From assembly GCA_051382305.1 (NCBI GenBank), contig JBBCAV010000111.1, positions 1 through 11,506 of the forward strand: a DNA stretch of 11,506 bases, in the 5' to 3' direction. Within the stretch, counting starts at the first letter, position 1. Every line of letters starts with the position of its first letter. The stretch is from Bdellovibrionota bacterium FG-2. Lineage in GTDB: Bacteria > Bdellovibrionota > UBA1018. The position numbers were made by a program, and so were the translations under genes. Below are positions 1-11,506 of this stretch, in pieces. The notes below the pieces were generated by a model. The model was not told where the DNA came from. It searched no databases and saw nothing but the letters and a program-made list of their open reading frames with translations.

Positions 1-80
1 GGAAAGGTTGTTGCAAATGAACTCACCGCGGCGATTGCTCAAGCAGATGCCGCGGTGAGTTCATTTGCAACAACCTTTCC
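1..80. repeat. Perfect 32-bp inverted repeat (fold-back) with a 16-nt spacer at the window edge
   Basis: 1-32 GGAAAGGTTGTTGCAAATGAACTCACCGCGGC is the exact reverse complement of 49-80. The spacer 33-48 is GATTGCTCAAGCAGAT. The repeat duplicates the 3' end of the TlpA-like gene. Confidence 0.97.
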
Positions 81-530
81 ACGCCATTGGTGGAGAAGTT
101 GTCGGTTTTTTCCAAGCAGAACTGTTAAAGGTATTGTTGCTTCCGGCGAAAAAGTGGCCAGGGAAGCAAGGAATGCGCGATCGGGCAACCACTGCTCATA
201 TTTAGGCTTGAAGTGGTCGACGAAAGCCTGAATTTCGCGCGTGCGACTTTGAATAGGAATTCCCAGTACGGCAATTTTATTTTGAGAAGCTTTTGGGGAT
301 TGGAGTAGAGCATTAAGCTCTGTTACCTCCTCTGAACAGGACTCACAAAAAGGACTCCAGATTTGGAGGACGACATAATCAGAAGAAAGTTCTGACAACT
401 TCTGATGAAAAGGCGAAGACCATTTACTGATTTCTAAAAAGTCTCGGTTTTCCGGAGAAGCGAATGCAGGCCATGAGGCCCCATTGGCAGCGAAGATCAT
501 TGATATGATGCAAAGCTGATGCAGCCGCAT
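39..530 (-). CDS. TlpA/ResA-like thioredoxin-fold disulfide reductase (redoxin), exported
   Basis: WSPFCESC matches the WxxxCxxC active site, and IPLTVLLGKN..LLHQWRG matches the cis-Pro region. There is an N-terminal signal peptide (..WPAFA). The ATG at 530 overlaps the upstream TGA (TGATG). The C-terminus lies inside the fold-back and is uncertain. Confidence 0.85.
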   Translation of the reverse strand: MRLHQLCIISMIFAANGASWPAFASPENRDFLEISKWSSPFHQKLSELSSDYVVLQIWSPFCESCSEEVTELNALLQSPKASQNKIAVLGIPIQSRTREIQAFVDHFKPKYEQWLPDRAFLASLATFSPEATIPLTVLLGKNRQLLHQWRGKVVANELTAASA

Positions 531-1492
531 CAATACCCTCCATAAGTCAGCCCAAGCGCGACGGATTGAGCGTTAGGTTGATTTGCAAGATAGCGATAAA
601 AGGGAAAAACAGTTTCGTAATTCATGGAAAGTGCCCATGCAGCAGTCGGAAAATAATTCAAGCTTGCAAGACTCGAAAAAAGCCTCTGGGCGGAACCATC
701 TACTGCATTCTTATTAATTGAATCTTGAAGAACCCAAAGCTGACGCATTCCAAGCGTTCCACTCCAACGTTGATTTACAAGGTAGGATGCGCTCTCATTT
801 AGCTGAAACCGATTTCCAGCGCGGTACTGGTATGGGCTACTGATCGGGGCACCTCGCATACTGTCTACCGTTCGCGCGATGGGATAAAAGTATGCGCCAT
901 CTATGGACGCCCGCAAGGGACGATAAAGTTTTGCTGCCGTGAATCCCGCATGAATGTGTGTGGTGCCGTCACTTACTGAATCTAAGCCGTAAGGATCGGG
1001 CGAATCATAAACTGTTTTACCAAACGGTAATCGAACTCCGCTATAGAATGTTAGCTGAGGGCGAAAGGGTAAAAATGCCAGATCCTCCCAAAATGTGTAG
1101 CGTGCCTCGACTGTGGGATCGCCCATCCCAGTTGTGTTTAGTGCCTTTCCCGAAAAGGTGCGATGATTTGAAATAACCGGAACACTTACCCCGGCTTGCC
1201 AGTCCTCTCCTAGTCGGTAAGCGCCGCCCACAACGGTGTTAATTTGGTAATACGAGCTTGAATCTTTGTTGGCTGTGTAATTCCCATAAGGATCAAACTC
1301 TCCCGTAATGGCTCGAAAGCTTGTCGTCACCCCTATTTCATATCTCTGCTCGGAGGGGAGCACGCACAGAGATTGGCCCCCGCTTCCCGCGCAGCAACTT
1401 GCTGCGAGCGCAATTAAAGGCCGGGTCGTGAACACGGCGAAGACCGCAAAAACCAGACCTAATTCAAATCTTAGTTTCAAAGACATACTCAT
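530..1492 (-). CDS. Putative outer-membrane beta-barrel 'transporter' (MetA/SphA-like) with N-terminal CC-x9-C motif
   Basis: The signal peptide ends LALA and is followed by ASCCAGSGGQSLC. It contains GMGDPTVEARY and GVRLPFG motifs, alternating hydrophobic beta strands and an aromatic C-terminal strand (VALGLTYGGY). An alternative start is at 1486. Confidence 0.65.
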   Translation of the reverse strand: MSMSLKLRFELGLVFAVFAVFTTRPLIALAASCCAGSGGQSLCVLPSEQRYEIGVTTSFRAITGEFDPYGNYTANKDSSSYYQINTVVGGAYRLGEDWQAGVSVPVISNHRTFSGKALNTTGMGDPTVEARYTFWEDLAFLPFRPQLTFYSGVRLPFGKTVYDSPDPYGLDSVSDGTTHIHAGFTAAKLYRPLRASIDGAYFYPIARTVDSMRGAPISSPYQYRAGNRFQLNESASYLVNQRWSGTLGMRQLWVLQDSINKNAVDGSAQRLFSSLASLNYFPTAAWALSMNYETVFPFYRYLANQPNAQSVALGLTYGGY

Positions 1493-1940
1493 CCTGACTG
1501 CTTCCGTCTTGAAGCTTAACTGTCATATGCCATAGGCCCGACATCCCAAAAAACAGCGATACCAAATAAGTTCCATCGCTTTGGCGAATTGCCGCGGCTG
1601 TATCGGTGCCCATATCGGGCATTTCCGGCATTTCATAGGTGACGTCAATTTTCATTTGCTCCGATACGCCACTAAGATTGTCGGCATGAACGCAGCGGAT
1701 GAGATAAACGTTATCGCCGACTTCAGCTGAGGTCGTTGCCGATCCGTTTGAACTTTGAAGCGAAGTATAGACGAGAAACGTATTGTTTTTGGAGCTAATT
1801 TTTGACTGAGATGTGGAATCCTGTATGCCGATTACGGGGTTACTTGAATCAGTTTTCTTTTCCTGATTCATGGGGCCACAGCCCATCCCGATTCCGATCA
1901 ATGTTACAATTGCAAAAATTGCTCGATTCATATTGCGCAT
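1464..1940 (-). CDS. YtkA/FixH-like Met-rich lipoprotein (putative copper chaperone-like)
   Basis: The likely start is ATG 1940, after the SD-like GGAAAGGA; the ORF-track extension to 2084 overlaps the NosL-like gene. It has a lipobox (IGMG-C) and YEMPEMPDMG...GTYLVSLFFGMSGLWHMTVKL, typical of the YtkA-like domain. Confidence 0.75.
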   Translation of the reverse strand: MRNMNRAIFAIVTLIGIGMGCGPMNQEKKTDSSNPVIGIQDSTSQSKISSKNNTFLVYTSLQSSNGSATTSAEVGDNVYLIRCVHADNLSGVSEQMKIDVTYEMPEMPDMGTDTAAAIRQSDGTYLVSLFFGMSGLWHMTVKLQDGSSQDEYVFETKI

Positions 1941-1965
1941 CCCGATATCCTTTCCATTAGAACTC

Positions 1966-2430
1966 TTACTTAAGAGCATTTTCGAAACCCTCGACAACGA
2001 CACCGTCGCCATATTTTGTCCTTGCGGCTTCGGCTTCTTTTTTGGTTTGAAACCCGGCGATAAGCGGAGGCATCGCCATTTCACCCATATCTGATTTAAT
2101 GTTCTGACTTTGAATCAGAAAAAAGGCTTTGTTCCCAGAAAGGAAACTGTCAGGATGATTGAAATCGGCGACTTCGGACTTTGAAAGTTTTGGATCATTC
2201 TTACGGATTTTGCGCGCACATGATGCGGAACAAATGTGGTAGCCTTTTGCACTTGAATCACTCCCATGGAGAACGATATGATTCTTGGCATGTTCAGGAA
2301 TGATCATCCCACAAACATCACAGTGATTATCTGACGCCCAAACAGCGATGGAAAGTGACATTAGGGTCAGAGCCAAGAGTGGTCTCAAGTTCTTAATGCC
2401 CTCCAACCACGCCTTGTTCAATTTACTCAT
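1966..2430 (-). CDS. NosL-family copper-binding protein
   Basis: CDVCGMII (CxxCGM), ICSASC, a 'VADF...AFFLIQS..MGEMAMPPLIAGFQTKKEAEAARTKYG.G.VV' NosL-like C-terminal half, a signal peptide (AVWA) and the SD AGGGGG. Confidence 0.8.
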   Translation of the reverse strand: MSKLNKAWLEGIKNLRPLLALTLMSLSIAVWASDNHCDVCGMIIPEHAKNHIVLHGSDSSAKGYHICSASCARKIRKNDPKLSKSEVADFNHPDSFLSGNKAFFLIQSQNIKSDMGEMAMPPLIAGFQTKKEAEAARTKYGDGVVVEGFENALK

Positions 2431-2785
2431 AAATCCCCCTCATGCGAGCAGTCATAGACGGTTTCACATAGTCTGTAAAGTTACGCATCTTAGTGAACGC
2501 GTGTTTTCGTGTAGAGAATTGAAATGAAATAAAAAAACACTTCGGATGTCACATTCTTTGGGGTTCGTGCGTATATACTTTCCGGGCTGAAGAGGTGATC
2601 CCGTTCAATAACTGATGAATAAAAAAGAGTACCCATCCTTGGCGATGCTCTCAACGCAGTCATATTTGATCTGAAGGTGTGTTTGAGTGATTTGATGCGT
2701 CGCGCTATGTCCTAGGGGATTGGAGAGCTGACATGAAGGCACGGAGGGGGATCGGGGCACCTGTTATTCCGCCGGAGAGGATGAG

Positions 2786-3436
2786 TTACAACAACGAGCC
2801 CTTTGACCCAAAATAAAAATGAAGGTTGCCACCGATGCCCCAAAGGATGACTCGTGGGAGCGGGTCTGTCCCGTTGACTCTAGAGAAATACTCGTAGGTT
2901 CCTTCCAATCCAAAATCGATGTTGCGTTCAATTTCGCAATGATATTCTGCAGCTATTTGTGTTGCAAAATTAACGCTTACGGTACCTTTTTTGGAGGACA
3001 TCATCCATCCTGTAGACTGAACGGCGATTCCCGGTGCGAGGCTCACTGAGAGGTTTCGCGTGGCGAAATCCGGTGGAAAAAGAAAGAGCCGAACGCGCGG
3101 AAAATAATGGACCATGCGAAGCGGTGTTCCGACGACTCCAGCGATTGAAAACTGATCACCAGATATCGGGACTGCCATCTGGTAACCGATACCAATACGA
3201 TTATTCTCCCCCAAGAGAAGCTCGCCGCCAACGTTTAATCGAAAGGGAATCGAGTTCTCGTTTGCAACGAGAACCCCGCTTCCAGCTCCGGCCCAGACGC
3301 CAAAACGGGGTTGGGGATCCGCCCCTTGGGCGCTTGCCCCACTCAAAAACAAAAATGCACCGGGAGTCAGTAGCATCAAGAGAAACGGGATATAGGCATT
3401 CAATGTTATCTTTTGCATCTTCATCATCTTCATCAT
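2786..3436 (-). CDS. Hypothetical exported protein, probable small outer-membrane beta-barrel
   Basis: It has a signal peptide (..ASAQG), Gly/aromatic alternating strands (RFGVWAGAG, DFGLEGTYEY, WGIGGNLHFYF) and the SD-like GAAAAGGT. Confidence 0.6.
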   Translation of the reverse strand: MMKMMKMQKITLNAYIPFLLMLLTPGAFLFLSGASAQGADPQPRFGVWAGAGSGVLVANENSIPFRLNVGGELLLGENNRIGIGYQMAVPISGDQFSIAGVVGTPLRMVHYFPRVRLFLFPPDFATRNLSVSLAPGIAVQSTGWMMSSKKGTVSVNFATQIAAEYHCEIERNIDFGLEGTYEYFSRVNGTDPLPRVILWGIGGNLHFYFGSKGSLL

Positions 3437-3515
3437 CTACCTTTTCAGCCGTACCTATGTAAATGAGGTCTCCGTGGTGTACATCGCGACTTCAAAAGAT
3501 GGACCTTGGGGCACT

Positions 3516-3803
3516 TCACACCAAAGTCATTCGGTGCAAATAAGATTGAGCAACTTCGTCCTCAGGCAGACGCAAGACTCTCGCAATTTGAGCAATCCGA
3601 GCCCTTGTGTAAGCAGGCGCGGGTAGGCTATCAAAACTATCAGCTTCAATAAGCTCGATAAGACTCGGCCGAATATTGGTCAAGGCAGACAGGTCTGTGA
3701 CGGATATGGCCAATGCTTCTCTCGCGTATCGTAGCGAAGCTCCCGACCATTGAGGTGGACTGAGTGAGCCGGAATCGCTGCTTGTCCCAATCTGTTCCTG
3801 CAT
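3516..3803 (-). CDS. XRE/RodZ-N-like (HTH_25) helix-turn-helix protein
   Basis: GASLRYAREALAISVTDLSALTNIRPSLIELIEADSFDSLPAPAYTRARIAQIARVLRL matches the RodZ N-terminal HTH pattern. There is no transmembrane or periplasmic part. Confidence 0.85.
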   Translation of the reverse strand: MQEQIGTSSDSGSLSPPQWSGASLRYAREALAISVTDLSALTNIRPSLIELIEADSFDSLPAPAYTRARIAQIARVLRLPEDEVAQSYLHRMTLV

Positions 3804-3810
3804 GATCCCA

Positions 3811-4161
3811 CTAATTCATCAATTGCTGATGGGGTGGCTGATGAGGATTATCGCCATCAAATTTGGCAAACTCAGCCGCCATCTTTGCCTGGATGTACCC
3901 CGAGTAAGTTCCGTCACCGTGGCGGATGATTTCCTTTAGCAGATCAACTGAAGGCTGAGTACGACCGTTACGCTCTTTTTCATACATGAGCTGGGTCAAA
4001 GCGGTCGCAGTAATGTCGTTCTTCGATTTGTTATCGATGACTCGCACATCTCGCCCCGACTTGAGCGTCTTATCCAGTTGATCGAGCGTGACGTATTTTG
4101 AGTCTTCTGGATCGTAGAGCTTGCGGTTCTGATAACGTTTAATAATTTTCGCTTCGATCAT
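3811..4161 (-). CDS. PhaR-like (PHB accumulation regulator) DNA-binding domain protein
   Basis: IIKRYQNRKLYDPEDSKYVTLDQL...GRDVRVIDNKSKNDITATALTQL is the PHB_acc_N signature. The SD is GAGG. Confidence 0.88.
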   Translation of the reverse strand: MIEAKIIKRYQNRKLYDPEDSKYVTLDQLDKTLKSGRDVRVIDNKSKNDITATALTQLMYEKERNGRTQPSVDLLKEIIRHGDGTYSGYIQAKMAAEFAKFDGDNPHQPPHQQLMN

Positions 4162-4305
4162 AAGTACCTCTTTCCCGTGCGATGCTTTATATCCTTCAAC
4201 GGCTTCCCTGCTGCAAGGTTTTTCGATTAATGCCTAAAAACGAATAATATCACACCGCATAATCAGTCTTTTTAGTCGAAAAATGTCGAGGCGACTTGGT
4301 TTTTC

Positions 4306-4334
4306 TTGCGTATGGCTATTGTTTTCCGTACTTT
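4306..4334 (+). promoter_or_regulatory. Candidate sigma70 promoter for the HU-family gene
   Basis: TTGCGT (4306-4311), a 17-bp spacer and TACTTT (4329-4334), about 30 bp upstream of the ATG at 4366. Confidence 0.4.
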
Positions 4335-4365
4335 TTTTAAATCCCAACAAGGAGAGGGACAATCT

Positions 4366-4713
4366 ATGGCTAAAACTAAATTCCATTTCATTAACCAACT
4401 TCACGAGCAGATTCTGAAGACCGTCACGACCACTAAGCAGGGTCAAATCAGACTCAAACGCGCTGACCTCAAGAAGGTTCTCGAAAATACGCTCATGGCG
4501 GGCGCCAAAGCTGCGGCCGGGGGTGAGCGTGTTCGCTTGCCAATCGTCGGTGCTTTACTGCGCAAAGAAGTAAAAGCTCGTAAGGCAGGCAAAGGTATCA
4601 ATCCCTTCACCAAAGAGGAGATCACGATTAAAGCGCGTCCTGCTTCAAAGAAGCCAAGGTGGAGTTTCCCCAAAAGTCTGAAGGAAACTTTCGCAAATAA
4701 AAAACACTGGTAA
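4366..4713 (+). CDS. HU/IHF-family histone-like DNA-binding protein
   Basis: GERVRLPIVG...KARKAGKGINPFTKEEITIKARPASKKPRWSFPKSLKE is the HU arm motif (GxNPxTxE). The SD AAGGAG precedes ATG 4366. The protein is 115 aa. Confidence 0.92.
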   Translation: MAKTKFHFINQLHEQILKTVTTTKQGQIRLKRADLKKVLENTLMAGAKAAAGGERVRLPIVGALLRKEVKARKAGKGINPFTKEEITIKARPASKKPRWSFPKSLKETFANKKHW

Positions 4714-4745
4714 GTTCTTGTCACTTTCTTGTCACAATGACGAGA

Positions 4746-4786
4746 TCCCCGCCCGTCTCACCTTCAGCGGGCGGGGAATATTTTTT
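4746..4786 (+). terminator. Rho-independent terminator after the HU-family gene
   Basis: A 10-bp GC-rich stem TCCCCGCCCG (4746-4755) / CGGGCGGGGA (4768-4777) is followed by ATATTTTTT. Confidence 0.8.
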
Positions 4787-5107
4787 GGCATAGAGGCTTG
4801 AGTTCCATAAATTCGATGTGAGAATGACGAAAATATCAAAGCATGTCCTCATTTACAGCGACACCTGAGATCCATCTCAACCTTTAAACGGTTTCATCTA
4901 CGCCAGGGCGGCTGAAGAGCTTTTCTTTCAATAAAGCTGAATACCCTTGATTGATGGAAACGGCGTTTCCCTTTTTGCGCGTTCTTTCAATCCAAGCATA
5001 AGCTGCCACGGCCATCAGGGCGTGTCTTTCCGACGATTGTTAATTTCGACCCGCCCTCCGCGAATGAGTCTTTTGCTCCGATGGAGCCCCCGCAACCAGC
5101 CCGTTTT

Positions 5108-5170
5108 ATGCCCCCCCTTTTTAAGGGGGCATCCGCTGACCCCTTTTCAAAAAGTTTGAAAAACCGGGGT
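5108..5170. repeat. Two adjacent inverted repeats in the non-coding leader of the conjugation-like operon
   Basis: ATGCCCCC (5108-5115) pairs with GGGGGCAT (5125-5132). ACCCC-TTTTCAAA (5139-5151) pairs with TTTGAAAA-acc-GGGGT (5155-5170). Confidence 0.7.
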
Positions 5171-5408
5171 TTCTACAAAAAACCGTCTACTCCCTCCAAA
5201 TGACTACGAATTTCGCCCTCACTTTTCAGGAAACTTGAAAGGTTTCCGCTTTTCTCCGGGCCGAAAAAAACACCATAAAATAGTTTTTCCCATTCGGCCC
5301 GCGCACTTGTCTCACGTTGGCACGATCCCGCAGTTTTCTTGCAATTTAAGAAGTGAGGGGACCGAAACAATTCGGTTCTTAAACAAACAATCGCAGGAGG
5401 ATTTGGCG

Positions 5409-5588
5409 ATGGATTCTTATTCTGATGTTCCACAATTTTGTAAGTGCCCACGGTGCAACACTCGCAGCTACGAAAGGTTCAGCACTCATAGTTACTGCAT
5501 CGAGTGCAATTACAGCCCCGTCATTGAGGACAGCAGTTCGGAAGCTCAAATTCCGGACTGGGCGCTCAAGGCTGCAGGTTTCGTATGA
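5409..5588 (+). CDS. Small zinc-ribbon protein (59 aa)
   Basis: A perfect SD AGGAGG precedes ATG 5409. CPRC-x13-CIEC gives two CxxC knuckles. Confidence 0.75.
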   Translation: MDSYSDVPQFCKCPRCNTRSYERFSTHSYCIECNYSPVIEDSSSEAQIPDWALKAAGFV

Positions 5589-5953
5589 ATGACAGGACAA
5601 GCAAAGTTTGGAGCGAATTTTCAACACAACCACTTAATCAGGAGAATGCAATGTCAAACTATAACGAAGTAAAATGGCCCGGAAAATGGAATGCAATTGA
5701 GGATAACACTAACCCCTATCAGATTATAGGACTCACTCACCCAGCACTTTGGCAATGCCTTTGGTCCCGCTTGAGAATTTTTCTCGCTCAACTAAGAGCG
5801 CTTAGCCTCATTCTAACAATGACGGTGAAGAAGACTCTCTCACGACTGAACCGCCGATGGGAGCTGGCAGCGCAAATGGACCAAAGAGTCTGCGATGCCC
5901 GAGCTCAGCATTTTCAAAGCCACTGGATGCTGGATCGAACCAATCGAATCTAA
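5585..5953 (+). CDS. Hypothetical protein
   Basis: It overlaps the zinc-ribbon gene by ATGA. An alternative start at 5651 has the strong SD CAGGAG (MSNYNEV.., 100 aa). Confidence 0.6.
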   Translation: MNDRTSKVWSEFSTQPLNQENAMSNYNEVKWPGKWNAIEDNTNPYQIIGLTHPALWQCLWSRLRIFLAQLRALSLILTMTVKKTLSRLNRRWELAAQMDQRVCDARAQHFQSHWMLDRTNRI

Positions 5954-5988
5954 CCAAGTAACAAACTACTAATAGAGAGGAACAGATC

Positions 5989-6141
5989 ATGAAAACCTAT
6001 TTAGCCCTGATAATTTTAGGAACCTGCCTCATGCACCTGGGATGCACCACCACCAATCCTAGCACGGGATCGAAACAAAAGCGTTTTCAGGACGCCGATT
6101 ATCCAATGCTCAATCACGTCGGCCGCCCCGGGCGTTTTTAG
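5989..6141 (+). CDS. Small lipoprotein (50 aa)
   Basis: SD GAGAGG. MKTYLALIILGTCLMHLG-C is a signal peptide with a lipobox, followed by a polar/basic tail. It is below the ORF-track size cutoff. Confidence 0.65.
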   Translation: MKTYLALIILGTCLMHLGCTTTNPSTGSKQKRFQDADYPMLNHVGRPGRF

Positions 6142-6161
6142 GCCATTCTAAGGAGACAATT

Positions 6162-6332
6162 ATGCAGGAAACTACTTTAGAAATGTCCCCCAGTGAAGCC
6201 TTAAACCAATTGAAACTGGAATTCTTCGAATGGTGTGGGCTGCTCTCGATCGATGAAATTGTTTCAAATGCAAATCTGATTCGAGTCATCGAACGGTTGG
6301 AGCGAATGCTTCTCGCAGCGGGCGGCGAATAG
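6162..6332 (+). CDS. Small hypothetical protein (56 aa)
   Basis: SD AAGGAG. The sequence MQETTLEMSPSEALNQLKLEFFEWCGLLSIDEIVSNANLIRVIERLERMLLAAGGE has an amphipathic helical pattern. Confidence 0.6.
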   Translation: MQETTLEMSPSEALNQLKLEFFEWCGLLSIDEIVSNANLIRVIERLERMLLAAGGE

Positions 6333-6365
6333 AAACCAATAAAACAAAAAGGGAGAATATAACGA

Positions 6366-6596
6366 ATGAACAACGACGAAAAAAGATCAGGCGGAATCGA
6401 AACCATCCAAGACTCAACGCTCTTTGAGGAAGTGGCCTCAAGATTGCGAAAAGTCTATCACAGGCAGCACGGCATGGAGTTTCTCTACGGCTGCTTTGAG
6501 TTCGTCTTTCACGAGGGAAGATTTCAAGGCATTGAGGATCGCCCCCGTTACAAACGCTACAAAAGCCCAGCCCGACTGACCACTGTTCCCACCTAA
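6366..6596 (+). CDS. Small hypothetical protein (76 aa), weak resemblance to YezD/DUF2292
   Basis: SD GGGAG. FLYGCFEFVFHEGRFQGIE resembles the 'yGsv.i.vhdG.v.qIe' pattern by eye only. Confidence 0.55.
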   Translation: MNNDEKRSGGIETIQDSTLFEEVASRLRKVYHRQHGMEFLYGCFEFVFHEGRFQGIEDRPRYKRYKSPARLTTVPT

Positions 6597-6615
6597 TACG
6601 AGAGGACAAAATATT

Positions 6616-6786
6616 ATGATCCTACCAATCGAAACCGGAATTGAACAACTCACTCGTGCGCTCTCAGAGAACGAGAAGAAAACCAATATGAGACTGATGA
6701 AACAAATGGCGAAAATGAAGCAAATGCTTTGCCTTTTTCGCGAAACGCTTGCGCCAAAACGCGTGAAGCAAGAAGGAGGTTACTAA
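6616..6786 (+). CDS. Small hypothetical helical protein (56 aa)
   Basis: SD GAGGA. The sequence runs MILPIETGIEQLTRALSENEKK...KQEGGY. Its stop overlaps the next start (TAATG at 6784-6788). Confidence 0.55.
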   Translation: MILPIETGIEQLTRALSENEKKTNMRLMKQMAKMKQMLCLFRETLAPKRVKQEGGY

Positions 6787-9700
6787 TGGTAAACGGCCAA
6801 AGCCAACCAAGCACTCAGGATACCCCCCCCGTCCTTGCCTTGATTGGGCTCGGCCTGGTCGTGGGAGCTTATGCGTATTTTGAGTCTCCCACGACCTTCT
6901 CTTTCATTCAAAAAGGGGCTGATCGTTACGTCAACGCTCATGTTAATTTCCTTTGCGTCACCCTTTTCTTCCTATCAATGAACGTCGTCTGGCTCTACTC
7001 GATCATTGCTCGAATCTTCGGCTTTCAAAAACAAGGGAGTAGACTTGAGTTTCTCACCGGAAAACGTCCCGATGACGGAGGTGCCACAGGAGCCTCCGGC
7101 GCCACAGGCCTCGTTGGCGCGACCGGCGATTCATGGAAGGCTGCGCTCGTGTCTTTGGCGATAGGCCTATCGACCTATGGGGTGCTTGCGCTATTTTCAT
7201 TTCCGGGCAACTCCGAACTCACTCCTCTTCTATTTTCACCCGGGGCTCGTGATCACATCTTGAATCTCCTTCGTATCAATATAGGGATGTTTGCCTTTGT
7301 CGTGGCCTTCGTACTAGGTCGAATGCCTCTTTGGAAGCGCCTGAGTCAACTGGGCCTGCGCGGACTATTTAGGGGCCGGGGAATCCCAGAAATGCCAAAG
7401 CCCGAAAACGGAATTGCCCTAGGCACCGTTGGCGAAGACAGCCCAAATGAAACGCCAGAATGGGCGGTTATGAATCGACGCGCGCTTAACGGGAACATCA
7501 TCGCTACAGGAAGCCCCGGCACCGGAAAGACCCAAGGTTTCATCCTCTCATCGTTTGACCAGATTCTTGGAAACTTTAAACTGCGCCCCTCAATCCTTGC
7601 GATTGATCCCAAGGGCACCTTTATCCCCGAAGCGCTCAAGATCATTGAAAGGCACGGTCTCAGTGAACACGTTTTGCATTTACGCCTCGGAGGAAACGTC
7701 ACGTTTAATCCGATCTTTAACCTCAATCCACTCAAGGGGGCTCGTTTCCTGGATACTGCCCAAATGATCAGGGCCGCCGCCGTAAACTTCATGGGGAAAA
7801 ACTTTGATTCACCCTTCTGGGAACTTTCATCCTTTAATCTGATCAAGAACTGCCTGGTTCTTTGTGGAGCAAAATACCTGAAAGCTGATTTTAATCTAAA
7901 CAACCTTTACAATGAAATGATCGTCGCCTCGAAAGATGCCAAAGAGGCAGCCAAAGCCCTTCGCGACCTGGCCCCAGACCTGATCCATGAAAAGCAGTTT
8001 GATGACGAAGAGCGATTCAACATTGAATGCGCCGCAAAGTATTTTGAGGAATTTGAGCAATTAGACGACAAGGTCAGGACCGGTATTCTTGCCACTTCGA
8101 CGGCTTTCCTAAATCAATTTCAAGAGTATCAGGCAAGCCGGATTTTCTGCCCAAAAAACGAACAAGCCACAATCAAAAGCATGGATGAGGTTATTGATAA
8201 CGGAAAAATCATCCTCTTTGATGTCGCAAGTCCGGCACTCGCGCGCTCAATGGGAACATTCATCAAACTGCATTATGAGCAATCGATCTTAAACCGCCTA
8301 GCGGACACAAAACGGGGCAAAGACCGAACGGCGTTTCTCATCATCGACGAATACCAAGACGTTGTATCCACAGGGGGCGGCTCGGCCCTTGGCGATGACC
8401 GATTCACTTCAAAATCGCGGGAAGCCAATGGCTCATTAATTGTGGCTACGCAAAGCCATAGTTCATTGAAAAACTCTATCGGCAAGGATGACGCCGCCAA
8501 GGAGCTGCTGCAAAACTTTCGAACTGTTATTGCTTGTCACTCGACAGACATAACGACCATCAAGAATTTTCAGGAGCTTGCGGGCCAAGAAGATCGGAAA
8601 CGGTATTCACACAGCGTTTCAGAAAATTCCCATCGCCCAAGCCGCAATCTCATGCTCGGGGGATTTGAGAGCAATGACGCCAATATCAGCGAATCAGTGA
8701 GCACGAGCGAGCACAAGGAGTATTCGGTAACCGGCAAGGAATTCTCGCGGCTGACGGCTTTTGAGGCTTTTTCGCTACTTTATGACGGCATTCAAAATCG
8801 CTATAAGAAGTTGTTCCTGAAACCCTATTATCTGAAAAAGAAAAACACTACGCATAAAGTGATCCTCACTCACTTAAAAGCGGCGGTTCTAGGTGCCGCG
8901 CTGTCTCTCATGGTAGTCACATCAAGCTTTGCCTTTCCAAACGTGTGTACGGTAGTTAATACCTCCGAGTTCAATTCTTGCCTGAGTTTCGAGGTCGGTA
9001 CCTGCATGTGCGGCTTTCCTGTCCCACGTCCTTGCGCCAACTTCTCGTATTATGTTCCCCAGACGTTTATCGAAGTGTTTCCCAACCCTAAAAGCTCGTA
9101 CTTTGGAGACTTACCGGGGGCGGCTGTGCAATTATCGACTTTAGGCTCGCTCCCGGTTCCATTTGGCGCAGAGGCCGACGACGACACGCAGAGTTTTCAC
9201 GCTCACGCTCTGGGTGTGCCGCTTGCGATGATTCCCTTTTCGACCCTACCCTGCACCAGTGCCCGGGTAGAGCAAACCTGTTTTGATGCAATGAGTGAGC
9301 ACCTGGGCTCCAATTGGAGTACGGGCGGTGCGGATCTCTTGCAACCAAACTTCATGGCATGGAGTCTGAGCCCCAAGGCGTGTCTGCTAAAAGGAGCGGC
9401 AACCTCCCTGGCAGGTGAATTAGAGCCAAATCTAGGTGGCGCAGGCGCCGGTTGCAGCATTCCGATGGGTTGGCTCCCAAAATATCCACCCTCGACTCAT
9501 TCGGCCTGTACTGGCTGGGGAACGTTTTATCCCCGCTCGGGGGTCTATCATGGCCCGAGTCAAACGACTGGCGCACTTATGGTTGCCTCCCGCATGAAGA
9601 GTCTGGGCGGTGATGTATTTCACACCACCCCCGCCTCGATTGATGAGGTTTGGCAGATGATTACGCCGCAATCGTCTTCGTGTTTTAGAGAGGGCCAGAA

Positions 9701-9887
9701 TGTCGGAGTCCTAGATACGATTAAGAACGTCCGAGAACTTGGCCGACTCACCTCCGGGAAACTAACGGGCTATCTCTTCACCGTGTGGTCAAAAGTGAGC
9801 TGCTGCCGCGATCTGGCGCTTGTGCCGGCCGCCTATATCGCACTTGAAGCGATGAGTGTTGCTTGCAAAGGAGCGGGCTCACTATGA
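6786..9887 (+). CDS. Type IV coupling protein (VirD4/TraD-like ATPase) fused to a C-terminal TraU-like domain, 1033 aa
   Basis: The SD GGAGGT precedes ATG 6786. There are four N-terminal hydrophobic segments, Walker A GSPGTGKT (7509-7532), IDPKG, FNP, SPFW, Walker B FLIIDEYQ (about 8334-8357), SREA and VATQS. After a hydrophobic segment (8880-8933) comes a 14-Cys domain with the TraU-like motifs CMC..PVP..SYYVPQTFIEV, GWGTFYPRSG, WQMITP..SSC and YLFTVWSKVSCC. Confidence 0.85.
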   Translation: MVNGQSQPSTQDTPPVLALIGLGLVVGAYAYFESPTTFSFIQKGADRYVNAHVNFLCVTLFFLSMNVVWLYSIIARIFGFQKQGSRLEFLTGKRPDDGGATGASGATGLVGATGDSWKAALVSLAIGLSTYGVLALFSFPGNSELTPLLFSPGARDHILNLLRINIGMFAFVVAFVLGRMPLWKRLSQLGLRGLFRGRGIPEMPKPENGIALGTVGEDSPNETPEWAVMNRRALNGNIIATGSPGTGKTQGFILSSFDQILGNFKLRPSILAIDPKGTFIPEALKIIERHGLSEHVLHLRLGGNVTFNPIFNLNPLKGARFLDTAQMIRAAAVNFMGKNFDSPFWELSSFNLIKNCLVLCGAKYLKADFNLNNLYNEMIVASKDAKEAAKALRDLAPDLIHEKQFDDEERFNIECAAKYFEEFEQLDDKVRTGILATSTAFLNQFQEYQASRIFCPKNEQATIKSMDEVIDNGKIILFDVASPALARSMGTFIKLHYEQSILNRLADTKRGKDRTAFLIIDEYQDVVSTGGGSALGDDRFTSKSREANGSLIVATQSHSSLKNSIGKDDAAKELLQNFRTVIACHSTDITTIKNFQELAGQEDRKRYSHSVSENSHRPSRNLMLGGFESNDANISESVSTSEHKEYSVTGKEFSRLTAFEAFSLLYDGIQNRYKKLFLKPYYLKKKNTTHKVILTHLKAAVLGAALSLMVVTSSFAFPNVCTVVNTSEFNSCLSFEVGTCMCGFPVPRPCANFSYYVPQTFIEVFPNPKSSYFGDLPGAAVQLSTLGSLPVPFGAEADDDTQSFHAHALGVPLAMIPFSTLPCTSARVEQTCFDAMSEHLGSNWSTGGADLLQPNFMAWSLSPKACLLKGAATSLAGELEPNLGGAGAGCSIPMGWLPKYPPSTHSACTGWGTFYPRSGVYHGPSQTTGALMVASRMKSLGGDVFHTTPASIDEVWQMITPQSSSCFREGQNVGVLDTIKNVRELGRLTSGKLTGYLFTVWSKVSCCRDLALVPAAYIALEAMSVACKGAGSL

Positions 9888-11506
9888 AATTTGGTGAACA
9901 CCTCCTAAGCACCGGCAAGATCACCTCCGAAGCCCTTCTCGAAGGCCTCGATATCCAGCGATTTCGCCCCCTCAAGCTCGGGCGATTGCTCCGTGACCTG
10001 GGTCACCTCTCTCAAGCGGAGTTAAACCGGCAGCTTCATGTTTTTAAACTCGCCGCAGGGTCAATGAAGGAGTTGTCCGCCAAGACTTTGGGAAGTGAAT
10101 TGAAGGCCAAAGTGACAGCGGGACTTCTCACAAGTGAGATCATGATTTGGGCTAACAGCAATGGTTGGGTACTTTTCAATGAATCTAATGAATCTGATGG
10201 AGCCGTTGAGTTTTTAGGCGAATCGTACCAAGACGAATTACTCGAACAGGCTGAGGATCGCTTTAAGAAGGCTGCAACCCTCGTTGTTGTAAGTGCAGAC
10301 GCCCTCAATCACGTTCGGCACTTGGCGGGCCTTATAATGCCCGGTTCGCCGGATTCGGGGGGATCGCGAGATTCAGGGGCATCACACCTCAGGGTCGAAA
10401 GCAAAGCGACGGACGAGCAAAAGATTGGGGCATCTGACCCCTATACCTCCCTATTTCGGGATACGATCCTGGCTGCTCGAACGCTCGGCGCAAGTGACAT
10501 CCATATTCAGCCGTCTCGCGACGGATTAGACATCCGTTTTCGGGTTAATGGTGACATGAGCACTTGGAAAACTTTGTCTCTTGAGCATCGCAGGTCCTTT
10601 ATCAATGAGGTAAAGCGACTCACAAATCTTTCGATTGCGATTAGTGGACGCGCCCAAGATGGGCGCACTTCGTTTAAGTCCTGGCAGCTTGATCTGCGGG
10701 CGAGCCTTCTGCCTTCACAATATGGCGAAAAAATAGTTTTGCGTCTTCTCGATCTTACCAGAAATTTCGATCTCTCAAGCCTTGGATTTGATCCCGAAAC
10801 TCACAATGATCTCTTGCAAGCTCTTCAATCTAAGAACGGGGTTATCATTATTTCGGGGCCTACCGGGAGCGGCAAAACCACGACGCTCTATACGCTCCTG
10901 TGCGCGTTGGATCGCTCGACGAGAAACATCATTACACTAGAAGACCCGATTGAATACGGGATCGAAGGACTGACCCAAGTTCAAGTCAGTCCAAAACTGA
11001 CTTTTGCAGAGGCGCTGCGATCCGTGCTCCGACAAGACCCTGACGTAATCTTGGTCGGAGAAATCCGCGACGCAGAGACCGCCGATCTTTGTATCAAAGC
11101 GGCATCGACGGGGCATCTTGTTTTGTCCACCTTGCACGCAAACGGCGCCGCTGAAGTGGTGGGAAGACTCATCAACCTGGGCATTGACCCCTATATGCTC
11201 AAGTCGGTTCTGAGATTCACCTCGGCGCAGCGGCTCGTCAAACGCCTTTGTCCGTCATGCTCCATCCCTGGGACTTGCGACGCAGGCAAGTTCTTCGAAA
11301 AAGCTTCAGACTTGAAGCTCCGCGCTGGCGCTGGAATAGATTATCGAAAGCGCGAACCAAACGGTTGCCCCCAATGCCAATCGGGAATCAAAGGACGCGT
11401 GCCCGTGCTTGAGTACATGCGTGCGCAACACATCAAATCCTACCTTGAAGCCCCACCCACGGAGCGGCCGCAGCTCACCGTATCGCTCCAAGAAGCTTGT
11501 TTGAGA
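9884..11506 (+). CDS. GspE/PilB/MshE-family assembly ATPase with N-terminal MshEN domain (3' end beyond the window)
   Basis: The frame opens at ATG 9884 (ATGA overlap) and is absent from the ORF track because no stop falls in the window. Motifs are ASDIHIQP, AQDGR, YGEKIVLRLL, Walker A GPTGSGKTTTLY (about 10856), TLEDPIEY, LRQDPDVILVGEIRD, TGHLVLSTLHAN, QRLVKRLCPSC and GCPQC (Zn tetracysteine). Confidence 0.95.
   Translation, partial: MKFGEHLLSTGKITSEALLEGLDIQRFRPLKLGRLLRDLGHLSQAELNRQLHVFKLAAGSMKELSAKTLGSELKAKVTAGLLTSEIMIWANSNGWVLFNESNESDGAVEFLGESYQDELLEQAEDRFKKAATLVVVSADALNHVRHLAGLIMPGSPDSGGSRDSGASHLRVESKATDEQKIGASDPYTSLFRDTILAARTLGASDIHIQPSRDGLDIRFRVNGDMSTWKTLSLEHRRSFINEVKRLTNLSIAISGRAQDGRTSFKSWQLDLRASLLPSQYGEKIVLRLLDLTRNFDLSSLGFDPETHNDLLQALQSKNGVIIISGPTGSGKTTTLYTLLCALDRSTRNIITLEDPIEYGIEGLTQVQVSPKLTFAEALRSVLRQDPDVILVGEIRDAETADLCIKAASTGHLVLSTLHANGAAEVVGRLINLGIDPYMLKSVLRFTSAQRLVKRLCPSCSIPGTCDAGKFFEKASDLKLRAGAGIDYRKREPNGCPQCQSGIKGRVPVLEYMRAQHIKSYLEAPPTERPQLTVSLQEACLR

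Follow-up and report, generated by a model that had tools for sequence, protein, structure and literature searches.

The F-type type IV secretion system (T4SS) is the textbook case of pilus extension and retraction with no VirB11-like ATPase, and the F plasmid keeps the gene order traA-L-E-K-B-V-C. Coupling proteins usually have two N-terminal membrane spans. The PilB/GspE motors act through PilC/GspF platforms, and MshE-type N-terminal domains bind cyclic di-GMP (c-di-GMP). Contig JBBCAV010000111.1 of Bdellovibrionota bacterium FG-2, analysed at its full length of 11,506 bp and hereafter called the window, carries on its forward strand a gene for a type IV coupling protein (T4CP) fused to a TraU-like domain, followed by a gene for an ATPase of the PilB/GspE class. 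Positions 6786-11506 of the window are probably the 5' end of the mating-pair-formation (MPF) operon of a family of integrative conjugative elements of Bdellovibrionota, with the ATPase serving the T4SS itself. As judged from sequence comparisons, the operon appears to be a divergent MPF_F system in gene content and order, and it is set apart from described F-type systems by an invariant PilB/GspE-class ATPase, by the fusion of the T4CP to pre-TraU and by an MshE-like domain in the long forms of the ATPase. Literature searches for which subscription journals and the supplementary tables of MPF surveys (which may list Bdellovibrio systems) were out of reach returned no description of this arrangement and no report of a T4CP-TraU fusion, in keeping with a preliminary description of the same DNA that had regarded the arrangement as possibly undescribed.

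The window makes up the whole of contig C111, and the genome bin to which it belongs is fragmented, with 4.34 Mb in 433 contigs, a completeness of 85% and a contamination of 4.4%; below, C denotes contigs of this same genome, L related loci and G001 a genome of the same genus. The open reading frame (ORF) of T4CP-TraU is listed as running on the plus strand from a TTG at 6729 to 9887, an ATG at 6786 being also possible as a start, and the ATG is favoured because it fits the N-termini of the relatives (alignment A2). The ATG of the ATPase gene, the second plus-strand ORF, shares bases with the TGA stop of T4CP-TraU (ATGA, 9884-9887), and a Shine-Dalgarno-like AAGGAG (9868-9873) lies inside the 3' end of the T4CP-TraU gene. 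The overlap had been reported in the preliminary description and was confirmed by direct reading. In 12 of 25 long-form relatives the two genes likewise overlap by the 4 nt ATGA, and in 1 they overlap by 1 nt; 8 have a gap of 1-3 nt and 3 a gap of 34 nt, with 1 junction left unresolved. The ATPase ORF is open-ended and runs off the contig at 11506, about 3-10 codons short of its stop codon, and the genes 3' of it are readable in the relatives only. The last 21-55 bases of the window recur at no contig end of the same genome, and none of C116, C263, C277 and C60, the candidates for the downstream contig, could be assigned to it. It is extremely improbable that a housekeeping PilB/GspE gene abuts a conjugation gene here by chance or by misassembly, or that the fusion ORF stems from a sequencing error. 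The fragmented and partly contaminated state of the bin would favour such an error, but a corresponding fusion ORF and ATPase neighbour recur in dozens of independent assemblies, on which ground chance abutment and misassembly were rejected, and the housekeeping PilB of this genome is located elsewhere, on C1.

Two sets of related loci have shown how constant this neighbourhood is. A search with the fusion protein yields 27 loci, which come almost without exception from bins labelled Bdellovibrionota, and the ORFs were clustered across 28 loci; in 22 of the 23 related loci with downstream DNA the ATPase gene directly follows T4CP-TraU. An alignment of the TraU domain recovers a second set of 80 loci, most of them titled Bdellovibrionia, Bacteriovoracia or Oligoflexia, and the ATPase core lies no more than 1.5 kb after TraU in all 77 loci with enough DNA, the other three ending too early. 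Together with the junction counts, this conserved synteny upholds the proposal of the preliminary description that the T4CP-TraU gene and the PilB/GspE ATPase gene belong to one coupled conjugation operon. Over 69 loci, the pairwise identities of TraU track those of the ATPase core (Mantel r 0.89, a value reached in 0 of 999 permutations), which is descriptive only, as kin are not independent. The 80 loci fall into several architectures: a fused gene with a short ATPase consisting of the core only (47), a fused gene with a long ATPase as in the window (5), a stand-alone TraU with a long ATPase (19) and a stand-alone TraU with a short ATPase (2), while 4 are too short upstream and 3 too short downstream. 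TraU and the ATPase are present without a VirD4-type T4CP upstream in 22 of the 80. The exception in the first set is L020 (JBFWVL010000008.1, 7457-17735), in which the TraU part is truncated and a housekeeping pilB-pilT-pilC cluster lies 4 kb downstream; it may be a decayed element inserted beside pilus genes.

The conserved plus-strand order across the 28 loci is small ORFs, T4CP-TraU, the ATPase and then clusters 3, 4, 2, 6, 10, 9, 11 and 13. Family scans of the relatives L017 and L012 have identified the genes that follow the ATPase as those of a TraF/TrbB-like thioredoxin (a weak match), a VirB2-like pilin, a TraL-like protein, TraE, TraK, TraB, a TraV-like lipoprotein and TraC/VirB4, with Pfam matches to TraF/Thioredoxin_2, TraE, TraK_C, TrbI and TraC_F_IV. 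The order pilin-TraL-TraE-TraK-TraB-TraV-TraC (clusters 4, 2, 6, 10, 9, 11 and 13) is kept in the relatives with enough DNA and is that of the F plasmid. The pilin candidate at the traA position is TrbC/VirB2-like (DUF3852) and has a signal peptide and two hydrophobic helices. The TraL-like membrane hairpin is named from its shape and position only, and the TraV-like lipoprotein from its position. The TraB/TrbI protein scores 73.7 bits, and 100.5 bits with the F-type TraB model. The TraC of L017 scores 81.8 bits with Pfam TraC_F_IV (cut-off 28.1) and 198.9 bits with the F-type TraC model TIGR02746 (cut-off 567), which outscores the G-type TraC model of integrative conjugative elements (90.3) and VirB4_CagE (78.9). 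Further 3' in two relatives are a weak TraH-like match (E 0.0041) and a TraG_N match (34.2 bits, cut-off 36.1). The TraG_N gene is followed in L040 and L041 by MobC/NikA, a MobA/VirD2-type relaxase (PF03432) and a tyrosine integrase (Phage_integrase), so that T4SS, T4CP, relaxase and integrase are found together in the relatives L017+L040 and L018+L041. Since MobC, the relaxase and the integrase lie behind the T4SS in these two complete relatives, the element is probably an integrative conjugative element.

The likeness to MPF_F thus covers the ordered genes from the pilin to TraC, the presence of TraU, TraF/TrbB-like, TraH-like and TraG_N proteins and the best VirB4 model, which is that of F-type TraC. 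The operon differs in several respects: a GspE/PilB-class ATPase is invariant in the element operons, whereas we know of no F-type system with a VirB11-like third ATPase; traU has been shifted to the operon's 5' end, in many loci as one gene with the T4CP; the long-form ATPases carry an MshE-like domain; and the profile scores are far below the equivalog cut-offs. A possible new class of machine, as suggested in the preliminary description, is supported in that the adjacency is conserved and the ATPase stands apart, but not in that the operon matches the defined class MPF_F. Of the downstream partners named in that description, TraC/VirB4, TraG_N, a weak TraH and a relaxase were found in the relatives, but a platform, prepilins, a secretin and TraN were not found among the genes searched. 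Many relatives, and C107 of the own genome, also have conserved genes for a sigma-54 activator, a histidine kinase and a family-5 solute-binding protein next to the operon; the window does not have them. A long N-terminal extension of TraE was tried as a docking site for the ATPase and dropped; it is probably an ORF-calling artefact, because the first ~85 residues of the long TraE ORF show little conservation and lie across another small ORF that is itself conserved. Within one subgroup of the relatives an HTH_17 and PIN-domain pair resembling a toxin-antitoxin module lies between the TraV-like gene and traC (L012, 19312-20434), and in the closest complete relative a DUF4135 (lanthionine-synthetase-associated) protein is encoded between the kinase gene and the small ORFs upstream of the operon (L017, 7392-8471).

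The ATPase matches Pfam T2SSE (E 8e-94). The best NCBIfam models are PilB (335.8 bits, cut-off 675.65) and GspE (330.3 bits, cut-off 630.25), and the models of T4SS ATPases score far lower: VirB11 60.8 (cut-off 249.95), TrbB 60.2 (304.55), TraJ 89.6 (368.3) and DotB 82.7 (463.3). The protein thus reaches neither the equivalog level of PilB/GspE nor membership of VirB11, TrbB or TraJ-DotB. Comparison with sequences of the PDB gives 254 bits for EpsE/GspE, 243 for PilB, 227 for PilF, 116 for BfpD, 104 for PilT, 83.5 for DotB and 46.7 for VirB11. The four cysteines of the core align with the CxxC...CxxC of Vibrio cholerae EpsE. An AlphaFold2 (AF2) model with a mean predicted local distance difference test (pLDDT) value of 84.4 consists of an N-terminal domain (residues 1-147), a disordered linker (151-173) and the core, and the best Foldseek matches of the core are GspE (4pht), PilB (5tsh/5zfr), PilF (5oiu) and EpsE (1p9w). 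About 185 residues precede the core, and this long N-terminus, the invariant cysteines and the profile scores agree with the earlier observation that the ATPase has the N-terminal extension and tetracysteine motif of PilB/GspE and not those of VirB11.

A tree of 31 sequences places 22 element-borne ATPases in one clade (Shimodaira-Hasegawa-like approximate likelihood ratio test, SH-aLRT, 99), and another clade (SH-aLRT 98) holds the PilB of the own genome, the PilB of L020, the paralogue on C3 of the own genome and three GspE references. The element clade is also apart from the PilQ-type ATPase of an IncK plasmid and from the pilus ATPase of a Pseudomonas aeruginosa megaplasmid. Its position relative to PilB+GspE is unsure, the reference sampling being thin, with no MshE reference and several long branches. 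The phylogeny called for in the preliminary description thus groups the element ATPases neither with the host's PilB/GspE nor with the R64-type PilQ of IncK. The identity is ~42% to GspE, ~40% to the host PilB and ~33% to plasmid ATPases of the IncI/IncK type. The GspE-like matches on Tateyamaria and Kozakia plasmids belong to ordinary plasmid-borne clusters of type II secretion systems (T2SSs) and served as references only.

The N-terminal domain of the long form appears to be related to that of MshE. In the ATPase of the window, NF053729, a c-di-GMP motif related to MshE, scores 32.4 bits over residues 2-51, below the cut-off of 38, and all 21 long-form relatives match it at E<=0.001 (best 9.1e-13). 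Two tandem MshE-type motifs at the very N-terminus are conserved in 25 long-form relatives. What we take to be the last conserved glutamine of the second motif is replaced in the element ATPase. Residues 1-170 give a single weak match among PDB sequences, to the GSPII domain of Thermus thermophilus PilF (E 0.047). The tandem N-terminal motifs and these matches are shared with the pilus ATPases MshE and PilF (MshEN, GSPII), whereas the MshE-like domain stands here on a T4SS-linked ATPase and, in the window, scores under the cut-off.

The fusion protein matches four Pfam families above their cut-offs, namely TrwB_AAD_bind (29.4 bits, cut-off 20.5), TraG-D_C (29.8, cut-off 22), T4SS-DNA_transf (22.7, cut-off 20.1) and TraU (29.4, cut-off 26.5). 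The ESM Atlas holds a cluster of T4CP-family proteins of 1020 amino acids in which Bdellovibrionota is the commonest phylum. The coupling-protein part has the domains, the Walker motifs, the N-terminal membrane anchor and the fold of the VirD4/TrwB family. The AF2 model shows the N-terminal membrane segments as helices and has a pLDDT of ~80-90 in the nucleotide-binding domain, for which Foldseek gives Cagbeta/VirD4 (8dol, E 4.5e-13), TrwB (1e9s) and the DotL complex (6sz9) as best matches. Since the model is good there and finds these three proteins, the coupling-protein assignment is sound. Compared with VirD4, TrwB and Cagbeta, the fusion protein has four N-terminal spans instead of the usual two and adds a C-terminal TraU domain, predicted to be periplasmic, behind a fifth hydrophobic segment.

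The TraU part is a distant member of its family, because tblastn of the domain against 72,556 plasmids gave zero matches. Taken alone, it exceeds the PF06834 cut-off more clearly, and 13 of 16 relatives also match PF06834, with conserved cysteine columns. Membership of the TraU family thus has in its favour a profile match over the gathering score, the 14 cysteines and the preceding signal-like segment, export being predicted only. The pLDDT of the TraU part is mostly <50, too poor for fold comparison. The AF2 model shows a helix at residues 690-707 at the signal-like linker between the two parts, and the stand-alone TraU homologues of the own genome and the relatives (352-372 amino acids) start at the signal-like segment. 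This segment may cross the membrane a fifth time or be the place where the protein is cleaved. The hydrophobic linker would be the export signal of TraU itself, directing the TraU domain to the periplasm while the coupling ATPase is kept in the cytoplasm; this topology works because four membrane spans precede the linker. Signal peptidase may cut after SFA, which would yield equimolar T4CP and TraU. Fused T4SS subunits have a precedent in VirB3-VirB4, according to an excerpt of PMC4027160.

We propose that the PilB-class ATPase would act on the T4SS itself, in the slot taken by VirB11 in P-type systems or by the PilT-like TraJ/DotB in I-type systems. It may be a third cytoplasmic hexamer that docks at the TraC/T4CP base and drives or gates pilus biogenesis and DNA transfer, and in the long forms the binding of c-di-GMP to the MshE-like domain would tune its activity. 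The same excerpt of PMC4027160 describes VirB11 as rare outside MPF_T (19%) and the TraJ of MPF_I as closer to PilT, so that a superfamily ATPase other than VirB11 within a T4SS has a precedent. The likeness to TraJ/DotB of R64 and Dot-Icm and to VirB11 of the P type lies in a third cytoplasmic ATPase of the secretion superfamily being encoded inside the T4SS, whereas the element ATPase belongs to the extension-motor clade, with a tetracysteine, an MshE-like N-terminus in the long form and ~330 bits on PilB/GspE. Several points weigh against the assignment of the window to a conjugative MPF_F-like operon served by this ATPase. The role suggested for the ATPase is read from position and conservation only, and PilB/GspE motors act through PilC/GspF platforms, none of which was detected in the element. 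All F-type assignments except those by Pfam TrbI, TraC_F_IV and TraE are below curated cut-offs, and no TraN, TraW or TrbC was identified among the scanned ORFs. The low confidence of the TraU part of the structural model and the sub-threshold MshE motif of the window count in the same direction. The linkage to a relaxase and an integrase is seen in L040, L041 and C60 of the own genome and cannot be read for the copy in the window. Since 22 of the 80 loci have no VirD4-type T4CP and the copy on C107 has no relaxase match, not every member need be conjugative. A complex prediction for the T4CP domain (196-690 of A2) and the ATPase core (171-541 of A3) scored 0.00 and gives no answer either way. 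More tentatively, the operons may represent an F-like sub-class in which a PilB/GspE extension motor is an integral T4SS ATPase without a platform, making pilus dynamics or DNA transfer respond directly to c-di-GMP in the long forms, and in which T4CP and pre-TraU are made as one polypeptide, inserted side by side and perhaps split by signal peptidase.

Other explanations of the ATPase have been ranked below this assignment. The one placed highest, itself unlikely, is that the ATPase acts as a reserve PilB, which docks at the base of the host's type IVa pilus (or T2SS) and redirects the pili to the stabilisation of mating pairs, like the R64 thin pili in liquid matings, without being a T4SS subunit. 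Such a role would explain a PilB-class motor without its own platform, and on C1 the own genome encodes a complete housekeeping pilB-pilT-pilC cluster, whose PilB exceeds the cut-off with 692.6 bits, and on C3 a second ATPase-platform pair. However, the element ATPases form a clade separate from the host PilB, 49 of the 80 loci carry short forms without any N-terminal domain, and the gene is invariably flanked by traU and traF within the T4SS operon and co-varies with TraU. Next in order, and a little less probable still, is a T4SS that in some copies is not, or not only, conjugative and that serves predators for contact-dependent delivery or release of protein or DNA, the coupling protein recruiting other substrates. 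The loci without a T4CP beside TraU and the C107 copy without a detectable relaxase or T4CP are in line with this, and the regulator, kinase and solute-binding genes beside the operon in many relatives suggest a signal-controlled use; against it stand the MobC/NikA-relaxase-integrase module directly behind the T4SS in L040, L041 and C60 and the patchy, multi-copy distribution of the element (28 of 301 genomes).

The explanation with little support, which comes last in this order, is the one put forward in the preliminary description: a hybrid machine in which a filament like those of type IVa pili, MSHA pili or the T2SS is powered by the ATPase, forms part of the T4SS and takes the place of the conjugative pilus. 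It would account for an ATPase of the extension-motor (PilB/GspE) class with a zinc tetracysteine that is invariably in the operon. The partners of such a filament have not turned up, however, and the proposal is judged improbable. Searches by tblastn with four platform proteins across the 27 and 80 related loci matched only the housekeeping pilB-pilT-pilC cluster of L020, and none of the 80 TraU loci gave a match; in the own genome PF00482 platforms are found only beside housekeeping ATPases, on C1, C3 and C40. A heuristic regular expression found no prepilin-type N-terminus in 1,411 ORFs of the 28 loci, and Pfam scans of operon genes in L017, L012, L040 and L041, which covered part of the small ORFs, gave no secretin or prepilin peptidase domain. 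The traA position is occupied instead by the VirB2/TrbC-like pilin with its signal peptide and two hydrophobic helices. The accessory type IVb pili of the R64 type share with the element a GspE-superfamily ATPase encoded on conjugative DNA, but in the IncK plasmid pECOED the ATPase lies among PilN, PilO2, PilP, a T2SS-F platform, a type 4 pilin, a transglycosylase and a prepilin peptidase, none of which is present here, and the IncK ATPase falls outside the element clade. The idea of an integrated type IV filament has thus given way to that of an ATPase working for the T4SS itself.

The distribution of the element is that of an accessory mobile element, because it is patchy, often multi-copy and missing from G001. 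Of 301 genomes sampled from the phylum, 28 have a TraU-like gene (E<=1e-20), among them 25 of the 257 high-quality ones, and several have 2-3 copies. The own genome has two further T4SS copies. On C107 (L049, L050), a separate TraU gene with 65% identity is accompanied by a short ATPase, the full T4SS gene set, the set of sigma-54 activator, kinase and solute-binding protein and an integrase, with no T4CP or relaxase match; the copy on C60 (L051) has the T4SS genes from TraF to TraG_N, followed by relaxase/MobC and an integrase, with no T4CP match. Six loci (L071, L130, L143, L144, L009 and L025) come from bins titled Planctomycetales or Polynucleobacter, in the set recovered with TraU, or Altimarinota or Chlamydiae, in the set recovered with the fusion protein; this could reflect mis-binning or transfer beyond Bdellovibrionota. 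An F-like lineage that always has a PilB-class motor and no platform would offer a natural experiment on what a third ATPase adds and on how a PilB hexamer can act in the absence of PilC. In the T4CP-preTraU fusion the substrate receptor is physically joined to TraU, a protein with a poorly understood part in DNA transfer; the fusion is also a testable case of an internal signal peptide, and the presence of an MshE-like domain hints at a second messenger that could gate conjugation directly at the machine. As a vehicle of gene flow, the element is frequent and multi-copy in predatory bacteria considered as living antibiotics, which makes its transfer range of practical interest.

Table 1. Features of the window, with positions counted from its first base
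Feature	Position	Strand	Evidence or remark
Conserved small ORF, 117 aa, CxxC...CxxC zinc-ribbon-like	5235..5588	+	Cluster 15; upstream of T4CP-TraU in 15/28 loci
Conserved small ORF, 76 aa	6366..6596	+	Cluster 5; 19/28 loci, always just before T4CP-TraU
T4CP + pre-TraU fusion gene	6786..9887	+	1033 aa from ATG 6786; ~1020-aa single ORFs in relatives
T4CP N-terminal membrane part	6825..7331	+	Four hydrophobic segments (residues 33-51, 72-97, 138-156 and 177-201 of P0001); Kyte-Doolittle
T4CP cytoplasmic nucleotide-binding domain	7374..8843	+	Pfam and NCBIfam matches
T4CP Walker A, GSPGTGKT	7509-7532	+	Invariant in 20 aligned sequences
T4CP Walker B-like, IIDEYQD	8340-8360	+	Invariant in 20 aligned sequences
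Internal signal-peptide-like segment	8859..8936	+	KKKNTTHK, hydrophobic core, SSFA/FP; residues 711-736 of P0001; hydrophobicity scan
TraU-like cysteine-rich domain (predicted periplasmic)	8937..9884	+	14 Cys; PF06834 36.7 bits, cut-off 26.5 (TraU part alone)
Coupling junction	9868..9887	+	AAGGAG 9868-9873, 10-nt spacer, ATGA 9884-9887; read directly
GspE/PilB-class ATPase, long form	9884..11506	+	541 aa read, 3' end cut; complete long forms 505-544 aa
MshE-like N-terminal domain	9884..10324	+	Residues 1-147; two tandem motifs, helical bundle + alpha/beta subdomain, then disordered linker 151-173
ATPase core (N2 + C-terminal domain)	10439..11506	+	Invariant columns (alignments A3, A4); alignment to EpsE
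ATPase Walker A, GPTGSGKT	10856-10879	+	Invariant in alignments A3 and A4 of relatives
Zinc-type tetracysteine C456/C459/C495/C498	11249-11377	+	Invariant in 19 and in 21 aligned relatives

The two conserved small ORFs upstream of the fusion gene match no Pfam family, and tblastn of the L017 copy of the 117-residue protein matches the window at 5433-5576. The sigma-54 promoter motif, which we take to be TGGCAC-N5-TTGC, has 0 matches in the window when up to 1 mismatch is allowed; scans of 4700-6900 for sigma-70 promoters and terminators do not rise above shuffles, and Rfam gives zero matches at gathering scores. The left border of the element was sought by comparing positions 1-6750 with G001. 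Upstream of the small ORFs a PhaR-type (PHB_acc_N) DNA-binding protein is encoded on the minus strand (3811-4161) and an HU-like protein on the plus strand (4306-4713), and these PhaR-like and HU-like genes (3857-4714) are the only part that matches G001, on several contigs with 69-79% identity. Because the sole matches fall on several contigs, no insertion site can be defined from this comparison, and the pair may be on repeated or mobile DNA. At the far left, the minus strand of positions 39-2430 carries genes for AhpC/TSA-thioredoxin-like, MetA-type outer-membrane channel, YtkA-like and NosL-like proteins upstream of the transfer genes, which could be a copper-handling cargo cluster or the chromosomal flank.

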